Below are positions 13,184 to 38,278 of a DNA stretch of 38,440 nt, in pieces. Position 1 is the first letter of the stretch. Every line of letters starts with the position of its first letter. The position numbers were made by a program, and so were the translations under genes. This DNA is from a virus (Duplodnaviria > Heunggongvirae > Uroviricota > Caudoviricetes): the IMG/VR virus record IMGVR_UViG_2663762939_000006; one strand, given 5' to 3'. The notes under the pieces were generated by a model. That model made no database searches. It was not told the DNA's origin and saw nothing but the letters and a program-made list of their open reading frames with translations.

Positions 13184-13280
13184 GATTGTGCTCCTGTGTA
13201 AGTTCAGGGCAGTATGTCGGGAGAAGCGCGTGACGGATATTAAAGGAGATTAAGAAGAAGGGGCCGGAGCCCCTGTGATG

Positions 13281-13562: not shown

Positions 13563-13564
13563 CG

Positions 13565-16664: not shown

Positions 16665-16665
16665 G

Positions 16666-17004: not shown

Positions 17005-17013
17005 AACGCCTCC

Positions 17014-17967: not shown

Positions 17968-17981
17968 GCTCTCTCCTTAAA

Positions 17982-19097: not shown

Positions 19098-19311
19098 TTT
19101 GCTGTCCCGCGTTATGTTGTCGGAGACAGTTTGTGAGAAATGCAGGCCCGGCGATTTTAATCTGCTTTAGAAAACATCAGGGGAGAAGGACAGGGAAAGC
19201 AATGCGGTGAACCGGAGGCGGTTATAAAACAGAGGCTGTAAAGCCTTTATAAAGGTAATACAGCCCCTCATTCGCTGGCAATGATAAATCACCCGCCTGA
19301 AGAGAGAAAAC

Positions 19312-19770
19312 TCAGCGACGGGCCGCTGATTCAAGATGGCGGACAATGGTATCGAGGATGGGGATTACCACTTCAGGCTGTAGTTCTCCATCCCCCGTCA
19401 CCGGCAGGAACGGGCGGGCCGGAAGTTCAACAGACTCATTACGCCCCGTTTTACCCCCGAACTGGTGAATGGCACCGTAAACAACGTTGGTCCCCACAAC
19501 AGCCTGCCGGTCGTCATGGTCGGTTGATACTGACCCCATCAGACGCCCGGTATCCTGCAGTGTCTGCCCGTCACGTTCTTCCGCTGCCAGCGAGGGGATC
19601 CACCCCGGACGCCCCTCATCAAGAAAGTTAAACTGTGTTTCCGCCAGCAGGGTTCCGGCGATTTTGCGCATCGCGGGCTCCAGGTCTGTGGCAGCAAGAT
19701 CCAGCGCACGGAGGCTCCGGCGCAGGGATTTATCGTTAATGGTGATACTGACCAGGTTATCGGAAGCCAT
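19312..19770 (-). CDS. virion morphogenesis protein (Mu G family)
   Basis: 152 aa with ..VVYGAIHQFGG.. motif typical of the Mu G family. Confidence 0.75.
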   Translation of the reverse strand: MASDNLVSITINDKSLRRSLRALDLAATDLEPAMRKIAGTLLAETQFNFLDEGRPGWIPSLAAEERDGQTLQDTGRLMGSVSTDHDDRQAVVGTNVVYGAIHQFGGKTGRNESVELPARPFLPVTGDGELQPEVVIPILDTIVRHLESAARR

Positions 19771-19772
19771 TG

Positions 19773-20594
19773 TTATCCTCTCAGTTCCTGTTGTGCCAGT
19801 GGCTGAAGCGTACCCTGATAGCGGGCCAGGTCGGGACGGTATGCTGCCCCCGGTGCATAAGACCAGCCGACGTCGGTGGTCACCTTCGTGGTGCCGGTAT
19901 TAAAGGTGGCCACGTTCCGCATTTCGCCGGTTTTCTCTGAGACCAGTTTCAGTTCCTGGCCCATGGCAGAGCCGGAGCTGATAACCTTCAGGCCACGGGC
20001 ACGTACATCCGCCGCACTCAGGGCAATCACACTACAGCGGCAGCGCCAGCCGTTCGGCGGGTAAAATGCCTGCCAGAACGGGTCATCCCAGCGCAGCACC
20101 AGACCATGCAGCGCCAGATGGCTCCTGCGGGTATGGCTGTCGTTGATGCCGGTATACATCCAGTACGGCCTGTCGTCGACGTTTTCCATCTGTTCCGCCC
20201 AACGACCGGCGCTGTAGAGTACGGACATATTGGTGCGAAAGATGGTATCGAGCCGCCACGGACTGCCCTGCTGAATGGTGACCGGCTTACCCGTTACCGG
20301 GTCAGTCGTGTCACGTGGTCCCCACCATCCCTTACGCTTCAGCACCGGCTCCAGCTCCTGCCGGAACCAGCGATCGGTTTTTCCTTCATCGACAGCCTGC
20401 TGCAGTGCCCCGCGAATATCTTCCAGGATATCCAGGCGGGTCACTTTAGCAACGGTAAAGGCGCGGGCATGGGCCTCCTGCCACATTTCTTCCCAGTCCC
20501 AGGTAATCTGATACCCTTTGGACTTCAGGTAACTGACTGCCCGCTTCGGGGGAAGCGTCATGCAGTACGCCAGTTCAGCCGTTGTCACGCTCAT
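19773..20594 (-). CDS. head morphogenesis protein (Mu F / SPP1 gp7 family)
   Basis: First ATG of the ORF at 20592-20594 (track start 20621 is TTG); family-typical size; overlaps portal 3' end by 20 nt. Confidence 0.7.
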   Translation of the reverse strand: MSVTTAELAYCMTLPPKRAVSYLKSKGYQITWDWEEMWQEAHARAFTVAKVTRLDILEDIRGALQQAVDEGKTDRWFRQELEPVLKRKGWWGPRDTTDPVTGKPVTIQQGSPWRLDTIFRTNMSVLYSAGRWAEQMENVDDRPYWMYTGINDSHTRRSHLALHGLVLRWDDPFWQAFYPPNGWRCRCSVIALSAADVRARGLKVISSGSAMGQELKLVSEKTGEMRNVATFNTGTTKVTTDVGWSYAPGAAYRPDLARYQGTLQPLAQQELRG

Positions 20595-22071
20595 GCAGAC
20601 GTCCCCAGATATTTGCCACAAAGAGAATACGGGCCAGCCGTTCCTGCAGATCGTCCGTGTTCATCTGAGGGTAGAGCTCCGCCAGTTCGCCCAGCAGCTC
20701 AGTCGGGTTAACCCCGTTTTCGACCCGCTTAAACAGAGGTGCCAGGACGGGTTCCAGCGTGCCATTTAACACACCTCCGTTCATCAGAATGTCCAGCGCG
20801 TCGTCAAGCTGCTGCTGAGCCTGAATATCGGCATCAATCGCCTCGGCAAATGACAGCGGCAGCATGTTATTCTGGCGTTCCGACGGTGGTGTCTCGTCAA
20901 TATCGCCGTCCTGCAGCTGGTACTCACGCTTAAAGTATTGCGGGGTCAGACGCAGACCCGCCCGGGTGAGTTTTTCGTCGCGGGTGGCGCGGGTGTCATC
21001 AATGGTCTCCTGTTCCCACATGGCCCAGACCGGACACGGCACATCGCCGAAGTTCAGGGTGACCACCGTTCTGATAACCTGATTCACTGCTGCCTGAATG
21101 ATGTCCGCATCCGCATCGCGGATATCAGCCGTTACCTCCAGCCCGGCCTGTGCAGAGGCCTTGTTACTGTTCGCTTCCGTGGTCTGATTCTGACCAAGTA
21201 ATGCAATGGAGATCTCACTGCGTGACAGTGTGATCAGCTCGCGGAATACCTCGCTGCTGTCCGCCTTACCATCCGCGGCTTTGAGTTCGATGCTGCTGTC
21301 ATCGGGGATGGCGGCCACCGCGTCCTCCACCATCTGCTCCATGGAGTCCAGCAGTTTTTCAATCTCTGCATCATTTGCACCCCTCGGGTGCTTACCGATC
21401 ACCCACGGGGAGCCAAACTTTTCGGCAAAGCGGAGCCAGAATTTCATCCCGCCTTTCTTGAAGGCGACCGGCCAGAAGCACATGGACAGGTCCGGGAAAC
21501 CGTAAGGATTGTCATACGAGGCATCCTGTGCCGGCACCACGAATTTTGACGGTGACAGCAGCTCACCCTCCACACCCGCATCACGCGCCCGGAAGCGCAG
21601 GCAGTTGTCCGTATCAAACTGAAACCACTCAGGCGGTTTGCCGACAATATCCGTCACTGCCCACGCCCTGACCGAACGGCCCCACATGATTTCACAGGGC
21701 TGATACCCGTAGAGCACGGCATCACTCATCTCACCGATGATGCGGGACAGATCCAGATCGTCGAGCATGTCGCGGATGAAACGGAAGACCCGGGCAGAAG
21801 CGTGACCGCGCTCCAGTCCACGCTCCAGTGATTTGAGCGCTGCTTTACGTCTGCGGATACAGCCCCCAACCAGCGGGTCGGTGCGCAGTTCGCGGTAGAT
21901 ACGGATATCCCGTCCCTGAGCCTTGAGAATGGGATCAGGATTGGGCAGATACATGCCCAGTCCGTAAAAGTCGATCGCGCGGCTGCGGGAGGCAATCTGC
22001 GCGGTCAGTGATTTCTGAGGCTCAGAAAAAGCAACAAATTCATCGGGTGAAACCCAGATACCCCTCGCCAT
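20575..22071 (-). CDS. portal protein (Mu gp29-like)
   Basis: 498 aa directly downstream of terminase large subunit, overlapping stop/start. Confidence 0.75.
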   Translation of the reverse strand: MARGIWVSPDEFVAFSEPQKSLTAQIASRSRAIDFYGLGMYLPNPDPILKAQGRDIRIYRELRTDPLVGGCIRRRKAALKSLERGLERGHASARVFRFIRDMLDDLDLSRIIGEMSDAVLYGYQPCEIMWGRSVRAWAVTDIVGKPPEWFQFDTDNCLRFRARDAGVEGELLSPSKFVVPAQDASYDNPYGFPDLSMCFWPVAFKKGGMKFWLRFAEKFGSPWVIGKHPRGANDAEIEKLLDSMEQMVEDAVAAIPDDSSIELKAADGKADSSEVFRELITLSRSEISIALLGQNQTTEANSNKASAQAGLEVTADIRDADADIIQAAVNQVIRTVVTLNFGDVPCPVWAMWEQETIDDTRATRDEKLTRAGLRLTPQYFKREYQLQDGDIDETPPSERQNNMLPLSFAEAIDADIQAQQQLDDALDILMNGGVLNGTLEPVLAPLFKRVENGVNPTELLGELAELYPQMNTDDLQERLARILFVANIWGRLHERDNG

Positions 22072-23594
22072 CAGAATCCCTCCAGCATACGGGCCGCCTG
22101 ACGACGACGGCGTGAGCTTGCCTTCACCGGCCCTTTGTTAATTTCACGGCTGGCGAAATACGCCAGCGCCAGTGCGATGGCTGAATCCCCGTGACGTTTA
22201 CCACCATCAGCCTTTGCTTTTGAGCGTTGCTCCGGCACGCGGGGGACACCGTTCACCACCTGAACGGCCCGCAGGTCATCCAGTGTGTCTTCATCCTTTG
22301 GTAAGTCCACCAGGTTACCGTCTTCCAGTGCAGCTTTGACCGGAGGCATATGCTCCCGGTACCAGCCTTCGGTTGGCATCACCTGCTGAACCCGGCCGGA
22401 GCCGTAGCGCTGCATGGCGTATTCAGCCAGATAGGCACCATTACCACGGGCATCAAACGCTGCACCCAGCAGACCGGGCAGGCCATCCATCAGATACCAG
22501 GTGATTTGCTCCTGCTGCCTGAACGGCACGTTACGTAACTCCAGTACGAATGGCACGCGTCGTATCAGGTTCTTCTCCTGCAACAACGGGTAGTCCACCG
22601 ACAAATCCCCGCTACGGCCAAAGTCACGCCCCAGAAAAGAGCGGGCACCAGCGGGGAGCGCCTCCAGTAATGGTTTCAGATGCTCATCAAGCCAGTCCTG
22701 CGTCTCGCGGAAGCGAACCTCATCAGACAGCAGTTCATAACCTTCCTTGCAGGTCAGACGCAATACCGGCGTATCAGCGGACATGCGGGACTCTATCAGG
22801 GCTCGGGACAGCCAGGCACCGCCACCGTTGGCCGGAATACAGTCAAGCTCTTCGGATGCACCGGCACCGTAGAATTTGTACACCGACGCCATCCAGGCCT
22901 GCTCGGATGCCTCCGACCATTCCTTCCCGGTGCGCAGACAAACGCGCCGGAACAGCCCCTCAGATACGGCTTCCCGGAAAGTAATGCGATGTACGCTGCC
23001 TCCCTGACGTCCGGCACGGATATCCCCGATAAGCGTATTGAACGGATTGTCGTCACCGTCATGGGTGGAGATAACGCGTACCTTTCCCCCCCAGATAAGC
23101 ATCGCCAGCGCCGCTTTCAGCAGTTCGTCCAGTTGCTCATGGAACGCCGCTTCGTCGATAACAATAATACCCTGACGGCCACGCAGGTTAGACGGGCGGC
23201 TGGAGAGCGCAACAATACGAAAGCCGGAGTCAGGAAATTTGATGGTGTAAGTCCTGATGTGTTTGTCGTCGTCGTCCTCTTCCCAGAATCCTTCTTCAAT
23301 TTCACTGGCCGCATAGTTGAATGCCCGTGCCCACATCGCACACGCCTGAATGTATTCGACGGTCATGTCCTGGTTATAAGCGATGTAATACACATTCATC
23401 CCGCCTGCTGGCGCAGAAGAGGCGGCGGTCAGTACGTTATCGGATGCCTCAGCCCATGTAATACCGGTACGACGGCTCTTTTCTATCACCTTAAGCGGAG
23501 AGGCATCTGCCACCCAGCGCTGCTGGTAGGGCAACAGAACGGGAGGGGCCTTATAACTCGCGGTGTCAGGAATGTGCGGCGGCAGCTCCGTCAT
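22071..23594 (-). CDS. terminase large subunit (Mu gp28-like)
   Basis: 507 aa; ATPase-like N-terminal and nuclease-like C-terminal regions; position. Confidence 0.75.
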   Translation of the reverse strand: MTELPPHIPDTASYKAPPVLLPYQQRWVADASPLKVIEKSRRTGITWAEASDNVLTAASSAPAGGMNVYYIAYNQDMTVEYIQACAMWARAFNYAASEIEEGFWEEDDDDKHIRTYTIKFPDSGFRIVALSSRPSNLRGRQGIIVIDEAAFHEQLDELLKAALAMLIWGGKVRVISTHDGDDNPFNTLIGDIRAGRQGGSVHRITFREAVSEGLFRRVCLRTGKEWSEASEQAWMASVYKFYGAGASEELDCIPANGGGAWLSRALIESRMSADTPVLRLTCKEGYELLSDEVRFRETQDWLDEHLKPLLEALPAGARSFLGRDFGRSGDLSVDYPLLQEKNLIRRVPFVLELRNVPFRQQEQITWYLMDGLPGLLGAAFDARGNGAYLAEYAMQRYGSGRVQQVMPTEGWYREHMPPVKAALEDGNLVDLPKDEDTLDDLRAVQVVNGVPRVPEQRSKAKADGGKRHGDSAIALALAYFASREINKGPVKASSRRRRQAARMLEGF

Positions 23595-24133
23595 GATACC
23601 ACCCCCAGAATTTCCCGGCGCAGTGCCTGTACGGCTTCCGCAGAGAGCCCGCCCTTACGGGCAATTTTCTCGGCGGCAGCGGCAGCACGTTCAACCCTCT
23701 CTCTGACTTCTGCCTGATAGCGCTTGAGGTTGACCGAGGCGCGGGTCAGTGTGGCGATATTTTTTGAAGCCGTTGCCAGCAGTTTTGCCCGGGCGAAGGG
23801 ATCGTCGTTTTCCCGCGACTCCTGCAGGCGCATCAGGATATCCGTCATTTCGGTCTGGACGAGGGTTATCAGCCCGGCTGAACGGTCATCAGGATCGTCT
23901 CCGGCCTCCCGGGCAAGCAGACGCGCTGCCTCGGTTGCCGCCCGCACCCGGGCCAGTTGCTGCTCCATTTTGTAGCCAAACCGCTGCAGGGAAGAGCGGG
24001 TGATGCTGTACCCCTTTTCCTTCAACAGACTTTCAAGCTCTGCATAGCCGGTGAAATTATTCTCCGTCAGTGCCCGCTCAAGCCAGCGACGGACCTCCTT
24101 CGGCAGAGAATCAATGCTGCTGCGACGTCCCAT
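23591..24133 (-). CDS. terminase small-subunit-like protein (Mu gp27-like)
   Basis: ATG at 24131-24133 (track start 24139 is GTG); N-terminal ..RRSSIDSLPKEVRRWL.. DNA-binding-like region. Confidence 0.6.
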   Translation of the reverse strand: MGRRSSIDSLPKEVRRWLERALTENNFTGYAELESLLKEKGYSITRSSLQRFGYKMEQQLARVRAATEAARLLAREAGDDPDDRSAGLITLVQTEMTDILMRLQESRENDDPFARAKLLATASKNIATLTRASVNLKRYQAEVRERVERAAAAAEKIARKGGLSAEAVQALRREILGVVS

Positions 24134-24135
24134 AA

Positions 24136-24447
24136 TCACTCACTCCAGTATTTTTCCGGGCGGGCAATACCGGGGCCGCATTCCACGGTGTATTCCACAA
24201 TATCCACACCAAGGCGACTCAGATCGGCAAACCAGTCACCGGAAGGCCTCTTCTCCAGTTCCACCATCTTGCGATCTGCCAGGTAATCAAGCTCACGGCG
24301 CAGCTCCAGTTGCGTGGTGTCCGGGTAGATGGCGCGGGACACTTCCAGCAGCAGCGTCTCGCTGGCGGTATAAGGGCGGGTTTTGTTCAGGGCAACCAGC
24401 AGACTCCAGCGCAGGGATTCGCGGCGTACCCGGGTAATATCGACCAT
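24136..24447 (-). CDS. hypothetical protein (Mu gp26-like position)
   Basis: 103 aa with SD GGAGG; between lysis cassette and terminase. Confidence 0.5.
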   Translation of the reverse strand: MVDITRVRRESLRWSLLVALNKTRPYTASETLLLEVSRAIYPDTTQLELRRELDYLADRKMVELEKRPSGDWFADLSRLGVDIVEYTVECGPGIARPEKYWSE

Positions 24448-24773
24448 TATTGACCTCCGGTATTGCGGTACTGCTGTACCACTTCCAGTTTGTTGTAGAG
24501 CGCGTCCAGTTTGGCCTCGATGACTGTCTGGCCACGGATATAATCCTCGCGACGGACATAATTCAGCGGTAAATCCGCTTTAAATCGCATAAATTCTTTT
24601 TCCAGTTCGCCCCAGTTGGAGGCGGACTGTTGCAGGGCCTGCTCAAGGGAGGCGAATCGTGCCGCCTGGCGTTCTTCTGTTTTACTGAACAACCATTTGG
24701 CGAGCCCTCCCACAAACCCCATGAAGGTGAGCAAAAAACTCACCACCGTCCAGAATTCAACCTGCAGTGTCAT
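24447..24773 (-). CDS. small membrane protein (lysis-associated, Mu gp25-like position)
   Basis: N-terminal TM helix (FWTVVSFLLTFMGFVGGLAKWLF); ATG overlaps Rz stop (ATGA). Confidence 0.5.
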   Translation of the reverse strand: MTLQVEFWTVVSFLLTFMGFVGGLAKWLFSKTEERQAARFASLEQALQQSASNWGELEKEFMRFKADLPLNYVRREDYIRGQTVIEAKLDALYNKLEVVQQYRNTGGQ

Positions 24774-25381
24774 TTCTGTAATCCTTCCCGTTCATCCAGT
24801 AGCGCGTTTATCTGGTTTCGCCAGCGACGACATTGCCCTGCGTTGTCGATGATGTTGGCAAGGACGTCAAGCTGGGAGACACCCGAATTGCGTAACCGGG
24901 CGTCAGCGGTTTCAGGTTGCCCGGTCGCTGCGCCAGTGCCGGTGCCAGCGGCGGCAACTGAGTCTGAATGACCGGTGTCGACGGATGCGTTGTCGTATCC
25001 GAGTGCGGCGTTGTACTGGCGCACGAAACCGCGAGTAAACACGCACTCAATGGGATGGCTCTTACCTTTTTCATCAATCCAGCGCTGTGTGACATCGTTA
25101 ATTTGCCCCTGTAGTTGTTTGTTCTGGTCCTCCAGTTGAGCAATCTGCTCAAGATAACCAGCTTCAGCCCGTTGCCCGGCGGCTACCTGCTCCTGATAAC
25201 GCTCAGACCATGCGCGCAACGCCGCCACCTCACGCCGGGCCTGTTCTGCCCGGTATCCGTCAAAATCCGCCTGCAGGCGGCTGAGCGCCGCCTGACCGTC
25301 AGCGGAGGCCCGGTCGTGGCCTGTGCTGTATCCCAGCCACCAGATCGCCAGCAGGAAGGTGTTCAGGAGAATGGCCAGCAT
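24770..25381 (-). CDS. i-spanin (Rz-like)
   Basis: ATG at 25379-25381 followed by N-terminal TM (LAILLNTFLLAIWWLGY) and coiled-coil-rich periplasmic part; contains an embedded lipoprotein ORF. Confidence 0.65.
   Translation of the reverse strand: MLAILLNTFLLAIWWLGYSTGHDRASADGQAALSRLQADFDGYRAEQARREVAALRAWSERYQEQVAAGQRAEAGYLEQIAQLEDQNKQLQGQINDVTQRWIDEKGKSHPIECVFTRGFVRQYNAALGYDNASVDTGHSDSVAAAGTGTGAATGQPETADARLRNSGVSQLDVLANIIDNAGQCRRWRNQINALLDEREGLQK
24808..25074 (-). CDS. o-spanin (Rz1-like) embedded in the +1 frame of the Rz-like gene
   Basis: Embedded ORF with MKKVRAIPLSACLLAVSC lipobox-like signal then a Pro-rich mature region; start inferred. Confidence 0.55.
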   Translation of the reverse strand: MKKVRAIPLSACLLAVSCASTTPHSDTTTHPSTPVIQTQLPPLAPALAQRPGNLKPLTPGYAIRVSPSLTSLPTSSTTQGNVVAGETR

Positions 25382-25409
25382 AATGACCCGCCACGGCAGC
25401 GACCGTAAC

Positions 25410-26147
25410 TTACGTACCCACACAGCTTGCCCCTCCCCATGAGAGATAACGCGGGGCCAGCGTGAACAGGATGCGCTGGGGATAATGACGGTTCTCCCGC
25501 CAGCTGGCAGTGCTGCGTCCGGCATTCACCGTGGCGACATGACCAAACCAGCGGGTGCTGTCCAGCCCTTTTTGTGATGCAAGCCGCCTGTCCCGCTGTA
25601 CCCAGCCCAGACCACCGTTATAGCCCGACAGTGTCATGGCCATACGCTCGCAGTCACTGGCGGCGCTGACGCGCTGCCACAGCCAGCGGTCATAGCTGAC
25701 CAGCGCCCGGATGGCCCATGCCGGATTAAATGGCTCACGGCTGTTAAGCCCCGGCATCAACTGACTTATCCAGTCGGCGGTGGCGGGCATGAACTGCGCC
25801 AGTCCCTGAGCGCCAACCGGCGAGATCGCATCAGGTCGCCAGCCGCTTTCCTGATGCAGTTGCGCAGCGAAATCAGCCACCGGCGCAGACAGTCCCCATT
25901 CAAGCCGGGCATTACGGATCACATCATCGCGATACTGCAGCGCTGCCTGCGGAGGCTGCGCTGCGCGGGCCTGACTGAAGAAGCCGCCACACCAGAGCAA
26001 CATTGCGACAAAGAATACCCGTGCCATATGAACCAGAAAGGTCCCGGCGCGGACTGACAGGCGTTCGGTTCTGATGAAGACCCTAAAGGCTTCGAAAGCC
26101 AGTTTCAGGGACATGCATACAATCCAGGTGATCTGCGGCCAGTTCAT
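25410..26147 (-). CDS. lytic transglycosylase-type endolysin (SLT domain), signal/SAR-anchored
   Basis: ..AQLHQESGWRPDAISPVGAQGLAQFMP.. SLT-like motif; hydrophobic N-terminus; ATG at 26145-26147 two nt after holin stop (alternative ATG 26027). Confidence 0.7.
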   Translation of the reverse strand: MNWPQITWIVCMSLKLAFEAFRVFIRTERLSVRAGTFLVHMARVFFVAMLLWCGGFFSQARAAQPPQAALQYRDDVIRNARLEWGLSAPVADFAAQLHQESGWRPDAISPVGAQGLAQFMPATADWISQLMPGLNSREPFNPAWAIRALVSYDRWLWQRVSAASDCERMAMTLSGYNGGLGWVQRDRRLASQKGLDSTRWFGHVATVNAGRSTASWRENRHYPQRILFTLAPRYLSWGGASCVGT

Positions 26148-26149
26148 GA

Positions 26150-26500
26150 TTAAAGCCCCATCGCAACAGCCAGACAGACCGCTGCAACAATCAGTGCACG
26201 GCGGATTAACGCAGCAGAAAACACCAGGTGAAGGCCGGTCTGTACCGGGAAACGCCCATCAGCCATCAGCCTGTCGTCATGTTTCAGGTACTGACCGGGA
26301 CGGGCTTTGGGGAAGAGCGAACGGTCAAGCCAGTAACCCAGCACTGCTGCCAGCGTGATGAGTGCCAGCTTGTAGATCACAACAGGCAACTGCTGTGGTG
26401 AGACCAGAGCGATGGTGCCCAGCAACAGCACTGAGGTCAGCAGCCAGCCGCTGAGGCGAGGTTTTTTAACAGGGGGAATGAATTTTTTCAGGTTTTTCAT
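26150..26500 (-). CDS. holin-like membrane protein
   Basis: ATG at 26498-26500 with SD AAGGAG; three predicted TM segments; first gene of the lysis cassette. Confidence 0.55.
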   Translation of the reverse strand: MKNLKKFIPPVKKPRLSGWLLTSVLLLGTIALVSPQQLPVVIYKLALITLAAVLGYWLDRSLFPKARPGQYLKHDDRLMADGRFPVQTGLHLVFSAALIRRALIVAAVCLAVAMGL

Positions 26501-26630
26501 GTGTGTCTCCTTGTCTGGTGGAGACAGCATCACAAATACAGGGCGCGAAGGATTTTAAAGCGCGTTAAGAGAGCCGGGGATACGGGATGTGCAGGATAAA
26601 CGATGAATTATTCACAGAGGAGAATACGAT

Positions 26631-27374
26631 ATGACGCAGACACTGAATCCGGTCATCACTGTCACCGTGTCCGGTCCTGTGGGCAGCGGTAAAAGTTACA
26701 TATTGGCGCGGATAGAGGAAGTGGTGAAACAGGAATTCGGGGGCAGCGTCATTGTCGATGCTGCAGACGTAGATGATGAGCGGCGTATGAGTGGCGATGA
26801 TCTGACGACCTGGCAGAAGCCACGGGGTGGCACAGTGATCAGGCTGGAGGAATACACGGGACAGGGCCTGTTGTCATACGGCGAGGAGCGTATCTGTCGG
26901 ACGAATGAGCTGCTGGATGTTATATGCCCCACGGGCCGGCAACCCTGGATACTGCCCGATGCACTGCATGCCACCATTGCGGCACTGATGACAGTTTACG
27001 ATCAGGAGCTGCTCATGAAGGAGCTACGTAAACTCACCGGTCAGCCAACAGAATGTTTTTCTGCCCCGAAGTACGGGAAACAGGAACACATCCCGGTGAA
27101 CACGCTCCCCGTTAACCAGCCTCCCCGGTTCTTCGACGAATACATTCTGACACCGGAAAATAAAGCTGAGCACGAAGAGATCAAAGCGGCGTTGTTCCGG
27201 GAAATCAGGAAGATTGCTGAAATGCAACTGGGGGGCGGGCTGGACAGAGTGATGGCGAGAGGAGAATGGGAGTCGCTGTTTGAAAGAGTTTCCCCGGAAT
27301 TACTTCCCCTCGCACTGGCTATCGGGATTATGCAGACAGCGGATAAACCTCACTTACGTTCATTAAACACGTAA
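26631..27374 (+). CDS. P-loop NTPase (Walker A GPVGSGKS at residues 15-22), possibly small kinase-like; function unknown
   Basis: ATG 26631 with SD GAGGAG; divergent from the late operon; N-terminal Walker A then VIVDAAD. Confidence 0.6.
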   Translation: MTQTLNPVITVTVSGPVGSGKSYILARIEEVVKQEFGGSVIVDAADVDDERRMSGDDLTTWQKPRGGTVIRLEEYTGQGLLSYGEERICRTNELLDVICPTGRQPWILPDALHATIAALMTVYDQELLMKELRKLTGQPTECFSAPKYGKQEHIPVNTLPVNQPPRFFDEYILTPENKAEHEEIKAALFREIRKIAEMQLGGGLDRVMARGEWESLFERVSPELLPLALAIGIMQTADKPHLRSLNT

Positions 27375-27754
27375 CGCATAATCCGGGATACGCATTCAGC
27401 GATGACTGCATTTTCACCGGTTTTTACTGCATCCAGAAGTGACTCTTTAAATGGTGCGGGCCGGGGCTGCAGAAGGGTCGGCGTGGCATTGAGCAGACGG
27501 AGCGTTTTTTCCGTGAGGACGACATCAGCCGCTCCCACAGCCAGCAACTGAGAGTAACGAATATAGCTGTTATCCCGAAGCCATATCAGCGTATCAATAA
27601 AATACCGGCACTTTTTCTGGTCGTGATCAACCTGGTCCGGGATATCGAAAAAACCAGAATAAATCAAAACCTGAGGTGCCGGATGCGTGTTCAGTAATCG
27701 GCAGAATATTTTGCCGGTGAGTGCATAAAAATCATCATTTAAGGAGTGCATCAT
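27350..27754 (-). CDS. hypothetical protein (134 aa)
   Basis: 134-codon open frame unlikely by chance; start ATG shares the palindromic TCATGA with the plus-strand gene; weak SD. Confidence 0.4.
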   Translation of the reverse strand: MMHSLNDDFYALTGKIFCRLLNTHPAPQVLIYSGFFDIPDQVDHDQKKCRYFIDTLIWLRDNSYIRYSQLLAVGAADVVLTEKTLRLLNATPTLLQPRPAPFKESLLDAVKTGENAVIAECVSRIMRYVFNERK

Positions 27755-27968
27755 GAATCCCCGATTAACGTTAACAGAACATCAGCGCCGTGCTGAAGCA
27801 GTGAACAATGTTCTGGAAGATATTATCCGGTTACATCGCGGAGAACTGAGTGTCTGTCGTGCCGCTTTTCATTTTCAGGGAATACAAAAGCAGTTTGATA
27901 CTTCTGTTTTTGCAGAAGGTATTACTTATGCCCTGGACCGGATAAGGTCAGAAAATCGCCCCGGATAA
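27753..27968 (+). CDS. hypothetical small protein (71 aa)
   Basis: ATG 27753 preceded by strong SD AAGGAG at 27741-27746. Confidence 0.6.
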   Translation: MNPRLTLTEHQRRAEAVNNVLEDIIRLHRGELSVCRAAFHFQGIQKQFDTSVFAEGITYALDRIRSENRPG

Positions 27969-28157
27969 TCCCTAAACCACATTAACAGAAATCCCACTAT
28001 CCCTGCCGCATCATGAAAGAACGACCAGCCCGGAACCCGAAATCCGGGCTGGCCATCGTCCCACAGGAATGCACTGTGAGCCGACCGAGGTTCAGTCAGT
28101 CTCGCGAGACCAGACTAGCCTGCCATATTTTTAGTAATTGTAAAAGGCTTACAGATT

Positions 28158-28922
28158 ATGAAAATGCAGACATTACCCATCGTTCCATGGATTGGTGGCA
28201 AACGCCGCCTTGCAAAACACATTCTGCCGCTGTTTCCGGCGCATGAATGTTATGTGGAGCCGTTTTGTGGGGCAGCAGCGCTCTATTTTCTTAAGACACC
28301 CGGCAAGATCGAAGTCATTAATGATATCAACGGTGAACTGGTGAATCTGTACCGGGTGGTAAAGCATCACCTGGAAGAATTTGTCCGCCAGTTCAAATGG
28401 GCGCTGGTCAGCCGTCAGATCTACAAATGGCTGCAGATCACCCCGGAAGAAACACTGACGGATATCCAGCGTGCGGCACGGTTCTACTACCTTCAGAAGC
28501 AGGCGTTTGGCGGCAAGGTGGCAGAGCACAGCTTCGGTACCTCCACCACATCCCCGCCACGCTTCAACCTGCTGCGTATTGAAGAAGAACTGTCAACAGC
28601 ACACCTGCGGCTTTCCAGAACAGTCATAGAACACATGGACTGGCAACAGTGCATTGAGCGTTATGATCGTCCGCACACACTGTTCTACTGCGACCCACCG
28701 TACCTGGGTACGGAAGGCTATGGTGTGGATTTTCCTGAAGGGAACTACTCGCGGCTGGCAGAGCTGGCCCGGTGCATCAGAGGAAAAATGATAATTTCGG
28801 TGAACGATATCCCACAGATGCGCGAGGTGTTCACTGGACTGAACATACAGACAGTGAACATCAACTACAGTCTGGCGGGGAAATCCACGCCGCGCCGTGA
28901 ACTGGTAATCTGCAACTTCTGA
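28158..28922 (+). CDS. DNA N6-adenine methyltransferase (Dam-like, D12 class)
   Basis: N-terminal ..KRRLAKHILPLFPAHECYVEPFCGAAALYF.. and catalytic DPPY motif (YCDPPYLGTEGYG). Confidence 0.85.
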   Translation: MKMQTLPIVPWIGGKRRLAKHILPLFPAHECYVEPFCGAAALYFLKTPGKIEVINDINGELVNLYRVVKHHLEEFVRQFKWALVSRQIYKWLQITPEETLTDIQRAARFYYLQKQAFGGKVAEHSFGTSTTSPPRFNLLRIEEELSTAHLRLSRTVIEHMDWQQCIERYDRPHTLFYCDPPYLGTEGYGVDFPEGNYSRLAELARCIRGKMIISVNDIPQMREVFTGLNIQTVNINYSLAGKSTPRRELVICNF

Positions 28923-28952
28923 AACAAAACCGGAAAGCACAATGCTTTCCGG
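28922..28952 (-). terminator. rho-independent terminator downstream of the repressor gene
   Basis: 9-bp GC-rich stem CCGGAAAGC/GCTTTCCGG with 5-nt loop, followed on the minus strand by TTTTGTTT. Confidence 0.6.
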
Positions 28953-29038
28953 TAAACCAAACAACTTCCACTATGTCACTGGCGATGTTTTCTGAAAGCA
29001 TCCAGATCAACCACCTGTCCTTTGTGTCCAGGTCAAAA

Positions 29039-29377
29039 TCAGCCTGCGAGTTTGCTTGGTTTGGGTTGAATGAAGACTTTGCCGACCTCAAGAATTGCCC
29101 TCCGTTGTTCGGGGCTCATTTCGTCGAATGCATCCATTAACTCTTTCTTTTCTTGTGACACATAAGGTGCAACAACAGGCTGACTCCGCACCCCAGTAAC
29201 TACATACAAAATATCTACACCGATTTCTGATAGTGCAGATAACTGCACTGCAGTAGGAGAAGTGCGATCTTTTTCCCAATCAATGAAAGTTCTCTTTGCC
29301 ACACCTATAGCATCAGCCAACCCTTGCTGTGTAAGAGATAGACGCTCTCTTTCTTCTTTAATACGTAACCCGATCAT
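29039..29377 (-). CDS. XRE-family HTH repressor (immunity repressor candidate); start ambiguous (29377, 29452/29455 or 29530)
   Basis: MIGLRIKEERERLSLTQQGLADAIGVAKRTFIDWEKDRTSP is a classic XRE helix-turn-helix; divergent from the Ner-like gene. Confidence 0.7.
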   Translation of the reverse strand: MIGLRIKEERERLSLTQQGLADAIGVAKRTFIDWEKDRTSPTAVQLSALSEIGVDILYVVTGVRSQPVVAPYVSQEKKELMDAFDEMSPEQRRAILEVGKVFIQPKPSKLAG

Positions 29378-29401
29378 GTGAGTTTTTCTGCACTCTTTAA
29401 G

Positions 29402-29430
29402 TTGACTGGTGAGGTAATCTGCACCATAAT
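29402..29430 (+). promoter_or_regulatory. sigma70-type early promoter (-35 TTGACT, 17-bp spacer, -10 CATAAT) with overlapping imperfect palindrome
   Basis: Near-consensus hexamers 48 bp upstream of the Ner-like ATG; TGGTGAG-N6-TGCACCA palindrome spans the spacer. Confidence 0.6.
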
Positions 29431-29477
29431 CTATCACACATAAGGCAAACATCATTGCATCAACAAAGGAGACAACG

Positions 29478-29666
29478 ATGACTGCAGAACAAGTCAAAGC
29501 TCTCTTCCGCCAGCGCGGGATCACTTTCACCCGCTGGGCAGAAGAAAACGGCTACAACCGCAATGAGGTATACCGCGTTCTCAATGGGCAGACCAAAGCC
29601 CGTTACGGTAAATCCCATGAAATCGCCGTGAAGTTGGGGCTGAAATCAACAGCTCAGGCAGCCTGA
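29478..29666 (+). CDS. ner: Ner/Nlp-like small DNA-binding regulator
   Basis: SD AAAGGAGA then ATG 29478; ..GYNRNEVYRVLNGQTKARYGKSHEIAVKLGL aligns with Mu Ner ..GYAPTTLANALERHWPKGEQIIANAL as recalled. Confidence 0.6.
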   Translation: MTAEQVKALFRQRGITFTRWAEENGYNRNEVYRVLNGQTKARYGKSHEIAVKLGLKSTAQAA

Positions 29667-29712
29667 AGATTTTGAGTCTTTGTAAAAGGTTATCACATAT
29701 CGCAAAAGAGGT

Positions 29713-30027
29713 ATGCAGATGAGTAAGACGAATGTTTCAAGCTCCGGCAGTCGCATCCTCCGGGTACTCAAAGCGCTGCGCGGTCATGCCCTGAACGGTA
29801 TTTCCAACGGTGAACTGGCGGCAGCACTGCACGAGTCACCGGCAAACATCAACCGGGCACTCAACACCCTCATTGAAGAAGGGTTGGCCCTGAAACTGGA
29901 AAACGGGCGTTTCGCGCCGGGCATCCAGTTACTGCAGATCGCTATGGCCCACAGTAACGAGATGGCACGTGCACAGGATCGCATTAACGAAATCAACCAA
30001 CGTGTCATTTCAGGTAGTCGTTTGTAA
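29713..30027 (+). CDS. small winged-helix DNA-binding protein (IclR/MarR-like HTH)
   Basis: ..ILRVLKALRGHALNGISNGELAAALHESPANINRALNTLIEEGLA.. wHTH pattern; SD AAGAGG. Confidence 0.5.
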   Translation: MQMSKTNVSSSGSRILRVLKALRGHALNGISNGELAAALHESPANINRALNTLIEEGLALKLENGRFAPGIQLLQIAMAHSNEMARAQDRINEINQRVISGSRL

Positions 30028-30952: not shown

Positions 30953-32722
30953 ATGAATGCTGCCCTGACTGAACGACTGGTTTATGTCGCCCGCGCGGCA
31001 CGTGACGCGGGGCATGGTAAACGCGGTGCAATATACGACGCTGCCTGTGCTGAACTTGGCATGTCCCGCGCCACTCTGCTGCGCAGGCTGAAGGAGGTCT
31101 CTGTGACTGATAAACGCAAAAAACGCGCCGATGCCGGGCGCAGCGCCCTGACCCGCGACGAAGCCGCGCTGATATCTGCCACACTGCGTGAGGCCACCCG
31201 CAAGAACGGTAAGCGTCTCTATTCCATCGCAGATGCAGTGGAAACCCTGCGGGCTAACGGCTTTATCACCGCAGGCAGAACAGATGAAACCACCGGTGAG
31301 TTTTTCCCGTTGTCCGAAGATGCCATCAGCCGAGCCCTGCGTAACTATGGCCTGCACCCGGAACAACTGGATGCCCCTGCGCCGCATACCGAAGTGGCCA
31401 GTCTGCATCCCAATCATGTCTGGCAGATTGATGCCTCTCTCTGCACGCTTTACTACCTGAGCAATGGACACAAAGGGCTGCAGGTGATGGACAGCGCGAA
31501 GTTCTACAAGAACAAACCCGCTAACCTTGCCCGTATCGCCAGTGACCGCGTGTGGAGTTACGAGATTACCGACCATGCCAGCGGCTGGATTTACGTTGAG
31601 TATGTGACGGGTGCGGAATCCGGTGAGAACCTGTGTTCTGTGCTTATCAACGCCATGCAGGAGCGTGGCGGCGCAGACGTGCTGCACGGCGTGCCAAAAA
31701 TACTCTATCTCGACCCCGGCTCGGCAAACACCGCGGGTATGACGAAAAACATGTGCCACTCACTGGGCATTGACCTGATAGCGCACAAGCCGCATAACGC
31801 CCGCGCCACCGGACAGGTGGAAAAGGCGCGTGACATTATCGAACGCAAGCTGGAGCCGGGTCTGAAGTTCCGGCCGGTTCACAGTCTGGAAGAACTCAAC
31901 GCGCTGGCCGCGAAATGGCGCAGCCACTTTAACGCCACGGCTGTTCACAGCCGCCACGGTAAAACCCGCACGGATATCTGGCTGAAGATTACTGCTGAGC
32001 AGCTGAAAAAAGCGCCTTCCGTTGAGGTATGCCGTGAACTGGCTGTGGCGGCACCAGAACTCCGCAAAGTCACGCCAAAACTTCGTGTCTCGTTCCGGGG
32101 CACTGAATTTGACGTATCAACGGTACCGGGCGTACTGGTTGGTGAAAAACTGATGATTACCCGTAACCCGTGGCGCAGCGATGTGGCACAGGTGGTTCTG
32201 ACCGGTGAGGACGGCCACGAGACGTTCTTCCTGGTCGAAGAGGTCAGAAAGAACGAGTTTGGCTTTGCTGAAGGCGCGGCGGTATTTGGCGAAAGTTACA
32301 AAGCCCTGCCGGAAACCCCGGCGCAGATGGCGGCAAAAGAAACCGAAGCGCTGGTCACCGGTACAGACAACGCCGCAGATGCAGCTGCCGCACGCAAGGC
32401 GAAGGCGCTGCCGTTCGGCGGGCGGCTTGACCCGTATAAACATATCGACGACACCACACTTCCGGCCTATATGCCGAAGCGTGGTCAGGCCTCTGACGTA
32501 CGCGGGCCGCGCACTGAACAACGTCCCATGACTCATGTGGAGGCCGCGAAAGCCCTGCGCGATAAGTTCAGCGCCGACGGCCTTACCTGGACGCCGGAAC
32601 ATTACCGCCAGTTAACGGCACAGTACCCGGACGGCGTACCGGAAGCCGCACTGGATGAAGTCATGGCCACGCTGACCACACCGGCCCGCAGCAGTGTTAT
32701 CAGCATTGTTAACGGCAACTGA
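30953..32722 (+). CDS. DDE transposase (Mu A-like, integrase-core fold)
   Basis: 589 aa; ..HVWQIDAS.. and ..LYLDPGSANT.. acidic-residue blocks consistent with a DDE/rve core; followed by a B-like ATPase. Confidence 0.8.
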   Translation: MNAALTERLVYVARAARDAGHGKRGAIYDAACAELGMSRATLLRRLKEVSVTDKRKKRADAGRSALTRDEAALISATLREATRKNGKRLYSIADAVETLRANGFITAGRTDETTGEFFPLSEDAISRALRNYGLHPEQLDAPAPHTEVASLHPNHVWQIDASLCTLYYLSNGHKGLQVMDSAKFYKNKPANLARIASDRVWSYEITDHASGWIYVEYVTGAESGENLCSVLINAMQERGGADVLHGVPKILYLDPGSANTAGMTKNMCHSLGIDLIAHKPHNARATGQVEKARDIIERKLEPGLKFRPVHSLEELNALAAKWRSHFNATAVHSRHGKTRTDIWLKITAEQLKKAPSVEVCRELAVAAPELRKVTPKLRVSFRGTEFDVSTVPGVLVGEKLMITRNPWRSDVAQVVLTGEDGHETFFLVEEVRKNEFGFAEGAAVFGESYKALPETPAQMAAKETEALVTGTDNAADAAAARKAKALPFGGRLDPYKHIDDTTLPAYMPKRGQASDVRGPRTEQRPMTHVEAAKALRDKFSADGLTWTPEHYRQLTAQYPDGVPEAALDEVMATLTTPARSSVISIVNGN

Positions 32723-32732
32723 GGAGGGAAAC

Positions 32733-33899
32733 ATGCTGGTACTGAAGCAGCAACTGAAAGAGGCCCGTATTCCACAGGCGGTGGTGGCGAGAGCTGTCGA
32801 TGTTTCTGAGGCCACGCTGGCCCAGATTGTGAATCATAACGCGTGGCCCCGCACCAGCCCCGGAGAAGTGCGCCGGCGTCTTGCGTCCTGGCTGGAAAGT
32901 CAGGGGATTGATACAACGAAGAGTTTTGATGCTGTACAGGGCGCGGCCACGCCCCGTACAGCGGGTACCACAGATAAAACGAGCCTCAGTGAGGAAGAGA
33001 ATATGTTACTCAAAAAACAGGTGTTATTTCCAGCAACCAAAAAAGCGTTTGGTCTTTTCCGTGACCCGTTCGCCGACGAAGCCATTCAGGGTTCTGATGA
33101 TGTGTTCACCACCCCGGACATTCGCTACGTGCGTGAGGCGTTGTACCAGACAGCCCGTCATGGTGGGTTTATGGCCGTCATCGGTGAGTCCGGTGCGGGT
33201 AAATCCACGCTGCGCCGCGACCTGACTGAACGTATCAACCGCGAGAATGCGCCGGTAATTGTTATCGAGCCATACATCATCGCTATGGAAGACAACGATG
33301 TGAAAGGGAAAACCCTGAAGGCAGCAGCGATTGCCGAAGCCATTATCAGTACCATCGCACCACTGGAAAGCATCAGACGCAGTCAGGACGCCCGCTTTCG
33401 CCAGTTGCATCGCGTCCTGAAAGACAGCAGCCAGGCGGGGTTCAGCCACGTTCTGGTGATTGAGGAGGCCCACAGTCTGCCTATTCCGACACTGAAACAC
33501 CTCAAACGCTTTTTTGAGCTGGAGTCCGGTTTCAAAAAACTGCTGTCCATCGTGCTGATTGGCCAGCCGGAACTGGCGACAAAACTGTCTGAACGCAATA
33601 TGGAAGTCCGTGAAGTCGTTCAGCGCTGTGAGGTGGTCGAACTTCTGCCTCTGGACAATAACCTTGAAGAGTTTCTGACGTTCAAACTGCAACGGGCCGG
33701 TAAACAACTGACGGACATTATGGACGCCAGCGCAGTGGATGCCATACGTGCCCGCCTGAGCAATCCGGGAAGTCATCGTAAAAATATGGTCAGCCTGCTG
33801 TATCCGCTGGCCGTCAGTAACCTGGTAATAGCCGCCATGAATCTGGCCGCTGAAATCGGGGTTCCACAGGTCAACGCTGACGTTGTCAAAGGGGTTTAA
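32733..33899 (+). CDS. transposition ATPase (Mu B-like AAA+ with N-terminal HTH)
   Basis: ATG 32733 after SD GAGGAGGG; Walker A GESGAGKST; N-terminal DNA-binding-like segment. Confidence 0.75.
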   Translation: MLVLKQQLKEARIPQAVVARAVDVSEATLAQIVNHNAWPRTSPGEVRRRLASWLESQGIDTTKSFDAVQGAATPRTAGTTDKTSLSEEENMLLKKQVLFPATKKAFGLFRDPFADEAIQGSDDVFTTPDIRYVREALYQTARHGGFMAVIGESGAGKSTLRRDLTERINRENAPVIVIEPYIIAMEDNDVKGKTLKAAAIAEAIISTIAPLESIRRSQDARFRQLHRVLKDSSQAGFSHVLVIEEAHSLPIPTLKHLKRFFELESGFKKLLSIVLIGQPELATKLSERNMEVREVVQRCEVVELLPLDNNLEEFLTFKLQRAGKQLTDIMDASAVDAIRARLSNPGSHRKNMVSLLYPLAVSNLVIAAMNLAAEIGVPQVNADVVKGV

Positions 33900-34198: not shown

Positions 34199-34729
34199 AT
34201 GGCAAAAAGTACAAAAGGGGCAAAACGTATCAAAGCCGCAGCAGCACTCTGGGTGCCGGGGACACGCGAAGAGGTCATTGAGGGAATCAGACTGCTTGGT
34301 GACGCGCAACGTGAACTGGTCAGGGCTGAAACAGAAATGAATGACACCATTGGCGACATCACCGCACGTTATGCCCCGCTCACCGAGAGCCTGAAAAAAC
34401 GCATGGCCGAACTGCAGTCCGGTATTCAGACATGGTGTGAGGCACACCGTAATGAACTGACCGGCAACGGGAAGGTGAAGTTCGCTAACCTCACCACCGG
34501 CGAGGTGCAGTGGCGAAACCGTCCGCCATCAGTCAGTATCCGTGGGGCGGATAATGTTATTGAATTACTGAGACGTCTGGGGCTTGAGCGCTTTATCCGT
34601 GTAAAGGAGGAAATAAATAAAGACGCCATCCTGAATGAAAAGGACGCCGTGAAAAATATTCCCGGTATTACCATAAAAAGTGATATTGAGGATTTTTCAA
34701 TAATTCCTTTTGAGCAGAATGTGCAGTAA
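34199..34729 (+). CDS. gam: Gam-like host-nuclease inhibitor (DNA-end binding)
   Basis: SD AGGAGG; 176 aa; N-terminal Lys-rich ..RIKAAAALWVPGTREEV.. then coiled-coil, as in Mu Gam. Confidence 0.7.
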   Translation: MAKSTKGAKRIKAAAALWVPGTREEVIEGIRLLGDAQRELVRAETEMNDTIGDITARYAPLTESLKKRMAELQSGIQTWCEAHRNELTGNGKVKFANLTTGEVQWRNRPPSVSIRGADNVIELLRRLGLERFIRVKEEINKDAILNEKDAVKNIPGITIKSDIEDFSIIPFEQNVQ

Positions 34730-36511: not shown

Positions 36512-36716
36512 ATCTGTTGTATGTGCCCTGTTCTGGTATTGTTTTGTCGGTTGGTGTACTGCTGAACTGCACCGCCGTTCAGGGTTTTATTCACGTTACA
36601 GTGGTGCTGGCTACTGGATTAGCTGGTCGGTGATGTTCCTGTGCTGGCCTGTGGCGCTTCCTTTATATGTCGATTATATCGGTGGCGCAGGTAAAAGGAG
36701 CAACGATGATGACTAA
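36501..36716 (+). CDS. small membrane protein (two predicted TM helices)
   Basis: ATG 36501 overlaps upstream stop; hydrophobic segments VVCALFWYCFVGW and WSVMFLCWPVALPLYV. Confidence 0.45.
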   Translation: MTAESVVCALFWYCFVGWCTAELHRRSGFYSRYSGAGYWISWSVMFLCWPVALPLYVDYIGGAGKRSNDDD

Positions 36717-37158
36717 ACAACGTCTTATCCAGCTCATTCATATTGCCCGTAATGAACTGGGTATGGATGAAGACACCTACCGCCAGATGTTACAGGGGCT
36801 GACCGGTAAAGCCTCAACCAAAGGAATGGATACCACACAACTAAACTGCGTGCTGGAATCCATGAAAAGGAAAGGCTTTCGCGTTAAGCCTGCCGGAAAA
36901 GCCAGCTCCGGTTTACCGCTGGATAACCATCCGCAGTCCAGGAAAATCCGTGCGCTATGGCTTGAAATGGCTGCTGCCGGCATTGTTCGTGACCGTTCAG
37001 AAAATGCATTAGCGCGGTGGATCAAGCGGGAAACGGGCATCAGCGCCCTGCGCTGGCTCAGTACTGAACAGGCAAGCAGTGTTATTGAGAAACTGAAGAA
37101 GTGGCAGCGCAGAGCTGCGGGAGTCAAACATGAGCGACCTGAATCAGTTTCGAAGTAA
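36706..37158 (+). CDS. gemA: GemA-like regulatory protein
   Basis: SD AAAAGGAG, ATG 36706; ..LIQLIHIARNELGMDEDTYRQMLQGLTGKAS.. resembles the Mu GemA family. Confidence 0.6.
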   Translation: MMTKQRLIQLIHIARNELGMDEDTYRQMLQGLTGKASTKGMDTTQLNCVLESMKRKGFRVKPAGKASSGLPLDNHPQSRKIRALWLEMAAAGIVRDRSENALARWIKRETGISALRWLSTEQASSVIEKLKKWQRRAAGVKHERPESVSK

Positions 37159-37528
37159 AGGGCCGGAACTCCTGGTGGAGCTGGCACAGCATACCTCTGA
37201 GACCGTTCGCGAGATTATTGATATTGAGCCCGCAATTGCCGACCAGATTGGTCAGGCCGTCGCGAACCGAATGATGCAGGTCTGGGGCGGGCAAAATGTT
37301 TATTTCCCGATGGGCATGGTATGGAAGGTCAGTCAGCGCGACCGGGAAATCTTCAGGGAGTTTAACGGACGCAACCACCACGAACTGGCCCGCAAGTTTG
37401 GTGTTTCGCTTCAGTGGGTCTACAGCGTGGTTAAGCGGGTCAGAAAAGAAGAACTGGATCGGATGCAGGGCAGGTTGTTTGATGAAGATCTGCCAGAGGA
37501 GACGAAAGACGTTAACAAATCCAGATAA
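37130..37528 (+). CDS. mor: Mor/C-family transcription activator
   Basis: 132 aa; C-terminal HTH ..NHHELARKFGVSLQWVYSVVKRVRKEE.. typical of the Mor/C family; last gene of the early operon as in Mu. Confidence 0.7.
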   Translation: MSDLNQFRSKGPELLVELAQHTSETVREIIDIEPAIADQIGQAVANRMMQVWGGQNVYFPMGMVWKVSQRDREIFREFNGRNHHELARKFGVSLQWVYSVVKRVRKEELDRMQGRLFDEDLPEETKDVNKSR

Positions 37529-38275: not shown

Positions 38276-38278
38276 TGT

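Follow-up and report, generated by a model that had tools for sequence, protein, structure and literature searches.

The 38,440-nucleotide viral record IMGVR_UViG_2663762939_000006 (Caudoviricetes), referred to at its full length as the window, carries phage genes organized into two outward-pointing arms (Table 1). All long open reading frames (ORFs) from 26500 down to ~1200 lie on the minus strand and all genes in 29478–37528 on the plus strand, as determined by ORF mapping and domain scans. GC skew and AT skew both reverse sign near 26000, as expected from the change of coding strand, and GC content is lower (0.48–0.52) across 27000–30000. Taken with the termini and relatives described below, the window very probably contains nearly all of one BcepMu-type (Bcepmuvirus) transposable prophage of 37.5 kb, extending from 1125 to ~196 bp past the window end and inserted in Escherichia coli yihQ.

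The minus-strand arm holds the late genes. Beyond the lysis cassette (holin, SLT endolysin and Rz), their order is TerS, TerL, portal, F, G, I, T, sheath, tube, tape measure, P2-like baseplate and tail fibre, and the arm ends with a gin-type serine invertase. It is divided into four operons, from lysis to G, from I to tube, from tail assembly to V, and from W to the tail fibres. The plus-strand early arm runs from a ner-like gene through an IclR-type helix-turn-helix (HTH) gene, DUF3102, an rve transposase (A), an AAA_22/ExeA-like B, Gam, DUF2786 and GemA to Mor. Between the arms lies a central block made up of the repressor, 100 bp of divergent promoter sequence and a cargo slot whose content varies. 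The repressor gene is divergent from the ner-like gene; its ORF could be extended to 29497 or 29530, and the start at 29377 is favoured by the alignment with BcepMu gp17. A hairpin with a T-run follows the repressor stop codon, so the repressor is probably transcribed as a short unit of its own, without entry into the cargo or late genes. CTGCAC half-sites around the candidate early promoter (Pe) were considered as operators, but no claim is made for them, the 6-mer being too frequent to evaluate.

A sequence-only reading of this DNA had described late genes running leftward from a holin to gin, and had placed the strand switch where we find it; the ORF map and domain scans bear out both. The rightward early run that it proposed from 29478 holds for the ner-like gene, A, B, gam, gemA and mor, but not for the repressor, which it had included and which is encoded on the minus strand (29039–29377). 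Its term central control region is apt in the BcepMu sense, though not as a label for all of 26.5–29.0 kb, which contains four genes; the divergent control region proper is the 100 bp at 29378–29477.

Table 1. Features of the window, in order of position (strand is that of the record; empty cells, nothing recorded)
Feature	Coordinates	Strand	Basis or remark
Host flank, yihQ (sulfoquinovosidase) fragment	1..1124	-	100% megablast identity to yihQ in E. coli genomes; interrupted by the prophage
Prophage terminus, gin side	1125..1170	+	begins TG; two GCGATAAAT repeats, putative transposase binding sites
Late arm: lysis cassette, packaging, head, P2-like tail, baseplate, tail fibres, gin	1203..26500	-	ORF map; collinear with BcepMu gp21–gp52; RefSeq annotation of the ABU 83972 copy
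gin-type serine DNA invertase, end of late arm	1203..1775	-	77% identical to Mu Gin; serine-recombinase NCBIfam matches
Invertible tail-fibre segment	1836..3452		232-nt inverted repeats at 1836–2067 and 3221–3452, arms 90% complementary (repeat search)
Predicted PW box TTAAACGCCTTTAATATC	6624..6641	-	upstream of baseplate gene W; -10 AATACT at 6599–6604
Predicted Ptail box TTAATCTCCTTTAATATC	13236..13253	-	upstream of tail assembly gene; preceded by terminator-like hairpin; -10-like CATACT
Predicted PI box CTAAAGCAGATTAAAATC	19153..19170	-	G–I gap, upstream of protease/scaffold gene I; -10-like CAAACT
Rz	24770..25381	-	
SLT endolysin	25410..26147	-	
Holin, first late-arm gene	26150..26500	-	Pfam Holin_2-3, E 1.5e-41; 53% identical to BcepMu gp21
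Predicted Plys box TTAACGCGCTTTAAAATC	26551..26568	-	upstream of holin; -10 GATGCT at 26526–26531
247-aa orphan protein, N-terminal 75-aa P-loop-like domain (GPVGSGKS)	26631..27374	+	phrog_3787, function unknown
134-aa protein of unknown function	27350..27754	-	phrog_2266, full-length match
71-aa protein of unknown function	27753..27968	+	phrog_4490, full-length match
Orphan Dam-family N6-adenine DNA methyltransferase	28158..28922	+	Pfam MethyltransfD12, E 5e-29; TIGR00571 dam, 117.3 against a cutoff of 114.85; PADLOC MTase_II
Terminator-like hairpin and T-run	28929..28953	-	just downstream of repressor stop; 11-bp stem with 6 GC pairs (promoter/terminator scan)
cI/Cro-type immunity repressor, BcepMu gp17 homologue	29039..29377	-	Pfam HTH_3; 36% identical to gp17, aligned from residue 2; repressor PHROGs
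Divergent early control region	29378..29477		100 bp; contains candidate Pe
Candidate Pe, TTGACT-17-CATAAT	29402..29430	+	near-consensus sigma-70 (10/12 consensus match); faces the ner-like gene
ner-like small DNA-binding protein (62 aa), first early-operon gene	29478..29666	+	NCBIfam TIGR04111 (BcepMu_gp16 family), 97.4 bits against a cutoff of 34; 46% identical to gp16
IclR-type HTH gene	29713..30027	+	early arm
Transposase A, rve/DDE, BcepMu gp09 type	30953..32722	+	Pfam rve; 67–68% identical to gp09 over 98% of length
Transposition ATPase B, AAA_22, ExeA-like	32733..33899	+	Pfam AAA_22; 59% identical to BcepMu gp08
Gam host-nuclease inhibitor	34199..34729	+	Pfam Phage_Mu_Gam, E 1.7e-40; 61% identical to Mu Gam
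GemA	36709..37158	+	Pfam GemA, E 1.3e-40; 45% identical to BcepMu gp02
Mor/C-family activator, last conserved early-arm gene	37130..37528	+	Pfam Mor, E 1.1e-43; 56% identical to BcepMu gp01
End-proximal cargo after mor	37643..38440		210-aa membrane-like protein, 37643–38275 (+), phrog_12870; 53-aa ORF, 38279–38440 (-)

Of the synteny comparisons that the sequence-only reading had called for, those with BcepMu and Mu were run by searching all annotated BcepMu and Mu proteins against the window (tblastn), and they returned a BcepMu-like map. Matches were obtained for 36 of the 50 BcepMu proteins, in exactly mirrored, collinear order: gp01 (Mor), gp02 (GemA), gp08 (B), gp09 (A), gp10, gp12 and gp16 on the plus strand, and gp17 (repressor) and gp21 (holin) through gp52 (tail fibre) on the minus strand. 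The head and P2-like tail genes follow the gp21–gp52 order on one strand with 29–76% identity. As in BcepMu, the two divergent clusters meet at the gp16 and gp17 homologues, followed by holin, SLT endolysin and Rz/Rz1; the transposase is of the gp09 (Tn552/IS1604) rve type and B is ExeA-like; a single Mor/C homologue stands at the genome end; the ends are TG…CA; and the same four late-arm gaps carry related boxes. The published BcepMu layout is identical, with genes 1–13 on the bottom strand, genes 17–52 on the top strand and, where the two clusters meet, the 16/17 control genes and then the lysis cassette (PMC2771037), so the resemblance to BcepMu first noticed from the sequence stands. The layout is thus real but already known, the two-cluster plan having been in the literature since 2004. 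The architecture itself offers nothing new: the prophage belongs to a genus already described, is common in E. coli and has an existing RefSeq annotation.

Several features separate the E. coli element from BcepMu. BcepMu is without a tail-fibre inversion system (PMC2771037), whereas the E. coli element has both a Mu-type gin and an invertible tail-fibre segment; conversely, the gp53 acyltransferase of BcepMu is not found in the E. coli element. Gam takes the place of the BcepMu gp03–gp06 block, the repressor–holin cargo is Dam plus three orphan genes, mostly in the opposite orientation, instead of gp18–gp20, and extra cargo follows mor. The Mu-type gin and invertible segment (1203–3452) sit on an otherwise BcepMu-type backbone. 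At the nucleotide level, megablast of 24000–38440 retrieved PhiKM, KP12 and Escherichia phage Phi06_2974 B and no BcepMu match, a point against the assignment insofar as genus membership is judged by nucleotide identity. GenBank files PhiKM, 95% identical to the window, under Bcepmuvirus.

The relationship to Mu is more partial. Only 10 of 54 Mu proteins match the window: Gam, GemA, Mor and C (at the same ORF), TerL, portal, F, G, a short piece of S, and Gin. The two phages share a replicative-transposition lifestyle, TG…CA ends and a short target duplication, the proteins Gam (61% identity), TerL (49%) and Gin (77%) as well as GemA, the Mor/C family, portal, F and G, a central G–I gap, and the use of a Mor/C-type activator at several late-operon promoters, the last being a prediction for the window phage. 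In contrast to the window, Mu is collinear, with c at the left end and everything from ner to gin on one strand, as the sequence-only reading had stated and the Mu record confirms. Mu further differs in its two-step Mor-to-C cascade, its com and mom genes and its own, non-P2-like tail genes. MuA and MuB gave no tblastn matches in the window, nor did the Mu C-specific, com and mom proteins besides the ORF shared with Mor, and transposase A shows no significant BLASTP similarity to MuA (best E 0.46). The hallmarks of Muvirus, namely a MuA-type transposase with MuB, a collinear map and a Mor-then-C cascade with com and mom, are accordingly missing from the element.

The lack of a C-like gene after mor, also noted earlier, was examined by a six-frame phmmer scan of the window, which recovered a single Mor/C-family ORF and no second one. 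This protein is about equally far from Mu Mor (31% identity) and Mu C (35%). The Mor/C homologue is likewise the final gene before the genome end in BcepMu and PhiKM, and the absence of a C-like gene is a family trait.

Two further transposable phages illustrate how such arms can be arranged. The Pseudomonas B3 group has transposases 50–57% identical to that of the window, with the transposase gene on the minus strand within the first 5–9 kb in most records, B3 included; the left arm of B3 is rearranged relative to Mu and D3112, and B3 has a long flexible non-contractile tail (PMC4378225), as opposed to the sheath-and-tube tail encoded in the window. In Burkholderia phage KS10, the repressor, lysis and packaging genes are divergent from the early operon (PMC2628397, Table 2), as here, but the head and tail genes follow mor on the early strand, the transposase is a different one and the ends are not TG…CA. 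KS10 thus represents a further permutation of the layout (PMC2628397).

Comparison of the intergenic gaps within the late arm disclosed a shared motif, YTAA-N6-TTAAWATC, in four of them. Each of these boxes, designated Plys, PI, Ptail and PW, is followed at exactly 19 nt by a -10-like hexamer (nAtaCT), placing a TTAA-N6-TTAA dyad centred near -42 at the starts of the four late operons. Allowing one mismatch, the motif occurs exactly four times in the 38 kb, always on the late strand and in late-arm gaps, against 0.11 occurrences expected by chance. At two mismatches, seven extra sites appear against ~4 expected, none of them at an operon start, and these were discarded as noise. The same four sites are present in PhiKM and none is found in Mu. 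Related boxes occupy the four homologous gaps of BcepMu, reading CTAAAGCCGATTAAAAGAC before the holin gene, GTAAAGCCGATTAAAAGAC before gene 32 in the G–I gap and TTAGCCGGCTTTAATATC before gene 49. The box upstream of the holin gene and its -10 region are also retained in relatives from Pectobacterium, Dickeya, Brenneria, Lonsdalea, Burkholderia and Pandoraea, while the spacer diverges.

The elements to which Mor and C bind in Mu are imperfect dyads located immediately upstream of a poor -35 region (bioRxiv 10.1101/2025.05.02.651988). All four late boxes display this type of promoter architecture, with an imperfect dyad, a poor -35, a recognisable -10 and a position at an operon start, and the dyad position in the window matches the description of Mor/C sites in Mu. 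This resemblance suggests how the two arms might be coordinated. In the lysogen, the leftward-transcribed repressor would shut off the early promoter TTGACT-17-CATAAT, and its own transcript would stop at the downstream hairpin. Upon induction, the early operon would be read through to its distal end and Mor would be made, which would then act in trans on the four late promoters, each with its dyad box. One-step activation by Mor would in this way replace the two-step Mor-to-C cascade of Mu; such a one-step cascade, in which Mor activates four late operons in trans, is probably the most economical model of the predicted sites. If late transcription depends on an activator that can diffuse, with no need of read-through, the arms could take any orientation to each other, which would explain the coexistence of divergent, collinear and mixed permutations in the family.

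The BcepMu-type layout could also be combined with boxes that are not Mor sites but sites for IHF or Fis, UP-like AT-rich elements, or sites of a second, unrecognised phage regulator such as the IclR-type HTH protein. The boxes are indeed AT-rich, as are the sites recognised by nucleoid-associated proteins, the early arm encodes several DNA-binding proteins that are uncharacterised, and the binding of Mor to the box is a prediction. However, the half-site spacing and the location just upstream of a weak -35 fit the Mor/C description, the boxes are confined to late operon starts, and Mor is the only known late-activator family member in the element. The box sequence, moreover, shifts between clades, as would be expected from co-evolution with a phage protein and not from a conserved host factor. 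We therefore consider this alternative unlikely.

A number of points weigh against assigning the boxes to Mor as well. The count of four sites is circular, since the pattern was derived from those same sites, and independent support comes only from the relatives. Among these, the Ptail box of BcepMu (before gene 41) is degenerate (TTAATCTGCGCTGAAAGT), and the BcepMu PI box lies only ~20 nt ahead of the annotated gp32 start. The promoters, the pairing of Mor with the box, the operator and a leaderless W transcript (see below) are all read from sequence. On balance, we give about an even chance to the full proposal that the single Mor of BcepMu-type phages drives a four-promoter late regulon through the TTAA-N6-TTAAWATC box, with one leaderless promoter (W), and that arm orientation is selectively neutral, so that permutations coexist. 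No published description of the late box was found in the literature searched, a coverage outside which the original BcepMu and B3 papers lie; the predicted Mor box with its four-promoter late regulon is possibly the sole new item in this element.

Two of the late gaps show additional features. At PW, the -10 hexamer ends 7 nt ahead of the W ATG at 6592, and the predicted transcription start coincides with this ATG, so that the W mRNA would be leaderless; the same geometry is found upstream of BcepMu gp49 (BcepMu record L002, 30774–30826). The G–I gap (19098–19311, minus strand) contains a hairpin, GGCTGTATTACCTTTATAAAGGCTTTACAGCC, whose 16-nt block TTTATAAAGGCTTTAC is identical in the otherwise diverged G–I gap of BcepMu (L002, 18725–18760). 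In Mu this gap is the site of the strong gyrase site, and it is central in the window phage, BcepMu and Mu. The conserved block may act as a terminator, as a gyrase site or as an additional activator site.

The boundaries of the element were traced by comparison with other E. coli genomes. Homology to the prophage in other genomes begins at 1125, where the terminus reads TGATGCGCCGCGCGATAAATGCACTCTATCTTGTGCGATAAATGG, and the same terminus is found in the copy of E. coli ABU 83972. Terminus-type repeats, G[AC]GATAAAT, occur in the window only at 1136 and 1159; the BcepMu termini carry the similar GAGATATTT/GCGATATTT. The segment 24000–38440 is 100% identical to ABU 83972, in which the whole element, 37.7 kb long, splits the sensor kinase gene rstB (record L001, 5490–5573 and 43272–44498). 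That copy has one TG…CA end pair and is flanked on both sides by ACAAAT, which amounts to a duplication of 6 bp when TG and CA are counted as the ends. Judged from the same copy, the right terminus of the window prophage should lie ~196 bp beyond 38440 and is expected to read …CATTTATCTCATGTCTGATCA. The right terminus and target duplication of the window copy fall outside the window, and that we infer them from ABU 83972 tells against the single-prophage assignment. The window does not follow the ABU 83972 locus throughout, a possibility ruled out by the lack of a terminus at 936: the left part differs, and the terminus at 1125 is in yihQ. One prophage therefore occupies two insertion sites, yihQ in the window and rstB in ABU 83972, as predicted by transposition. 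TG…CA ends, a short target duplication and varied host sites are the pattern of BcepMu-type phages. Some E. coli genomes contain up to three or four matching places.

These data also bear on whether the window might hold two separate mobile elements that meet between 26500 and 29040: on the left a prophage that is defective or made up of late genes, on the right a Mu-like transposon. The strand switch is located in this interval, the lower-GC stretch begins there, and the interval contains unrelated cargo genes that differ among genomes. A second prophage end between these positions, which the sequence-only reading had named beforehand as the observation that would speak against a single divergent element, was sought and is not present: a motif scan of the window found no terminus-type repeat between 26500 and 29040. 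Around the whole element, the ABU 83972 copy has a single end pair and a single target duplication, both arms have travelled together to different host genes, both are contained in phage genomes, and the entire map is collinear with BcepMu. The two-element explanation is already refuted and retains only a very slight probability. The contiguity of 24000–38440 in 503 E. coli genomes, given below, speaks for one element too.

The prophage is present in ~640 of 5,426 complete E. coli genomes (~12%) and as the isolated phages PhiKM and KP12. In 503 complete E. coli genomes the segment 24000–38440 forms one contiguous stretch (at least 80% covered), and the genomes of PhiKM and KP12 span both arms. 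PhiKM (PQ738613) shows 95% nucleotide identity over the central and early region, with the same layout and the same four boxes, and Klebsiella phage KP12 (OM835952) 87% over that region. These two, Escherichia phage Phi06_2974 B and the prophages of ABU 83972, EC958 and other sequence type 131 (ST131) strains belong to the same lineage as the window phage. Bcepmuvirus has also been listed among the prophage genera of E. coli wound isolates including ST131 strains (bioRxiv preprint).

We then scanned for the family more widely with the transposase, using one genome per species. This recovered 80 loci from Enterobacterales, Burkholderiales, Neisseriales, Pseudomonadales and others, of which 68, from ~40 genera of Beta- and Gammaproteobacteria, had late markers within reach. 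Holin, SLT, TerS or TerL genes lie upstream of A on the opposite strand in 64 of these 68, indicating that the divergent layout is the norm of this transposase family and no peculiarity of the window. In the remaining four (L037, L040, L044 and L068), lysis and terminase genes follow mor and share its strand, as they do in Mu. Wherever mor was found (72 loci), it follows A and shares its strand; wherever a repressor homologue could be detected (34 loci), it lies upstream and is divergent. In the collinear relative L037, a box follows directly after the mor stop codon, and a PW-like box lies on the opposite strand upstream of the early arm (L037 positions 3723 and 15436); this placement suggests operon-level shuffling. 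The least probable reading of all is that a Mu-collinear prophage shows its divergent orientation in this genome alone, through a local inversion or an assembly artefact: it can draw on the four collinear relatives with the same transposase family and on an active-looking invertase, gin, in the element, but the orientation recurs in the 503 E. coli genomes, in PhiKM, KP12 and BcepMu, and in the 64 relatives from many genera, long inverted repeats within 1125–5000 occur only around the tail-fibre segment, and neither arm is flanked by any of the longest repeats found in the ABU 83972 copy.

For annotation, the element is best classified as a BcepMu-type transposable phage that disrupts host genes, and not as a rearranged Mu or two adjacent elements. 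The usable by-products are the predicted Mor-dependent late promoters, a repressor–holin cargo hot-spot with uncharacterised genes, and an arm orientation that varies in the family; these could aid promoter annotation, searches for prophage-borne defence or conversion genes, and the engineering of transposable phages.

Four cargo genes (26631–28922) fill the variable slot between repressor and holin, an interval that ranges from 1.3 to 4.6 kb among relatives. The 247-aa orphan has 55 relatives in an exhaustive search of 1.84 billion representative proteins, all sharing only residues 1–75; this segment holds the pattern GPxGSGKS…IIDAPD…W..P, and the C-terminal extensions are unrelated among the relatives. 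A word search of 5.8 billion proteins returned close E. coli relatives only. Its AlphaFold2 model has a mean predicted local distance difference test score of 59 and is confident for residues 1–75 only, and a Foldseek search of the PDB found nothing below E = 4. Sequence searches of NCBIfam and the PDB with this protein were negative, Pfam AAA_30 was sub-threshold and PADLOC mads_8 weak. The 134-aa protein had no Pfam, NCBIfam, PADLOC or PDB match; like the 71-aa protein, it is assigned to nothing but a PHROG family of unknown function. Its gene is divergent from that of the 71-aa protein with overlapping start codons (27752–27755), leaving no intergenic promoter space, and its 3′ end runs 25 bp into the 3′ end of the 247-aa gene. 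Across the window, neither the Rfam scan nor the tRNA scan gave a match.

Other E. coli copies have different repressor–holin cassettes. The slot of copy L005 (6232–8862) holds a gene annotated as 'ABC transporter ATPase' and two hypotheticals, and includes 328-aa and 193-aa proteins; that of copy L006 (3849–7302) holds Dam, a 401-aa protein and a homologue of a nucleoid-associated protein. Both cassettes are co-directional with the repressor and are candidates for conversion or defence genes expressed in the lysogen. At the other end of the early arm, the two ORFs after mor are missing from PhiKM, whose genome ends ~180 bp past mor, and this region looks like a second cargo slot.

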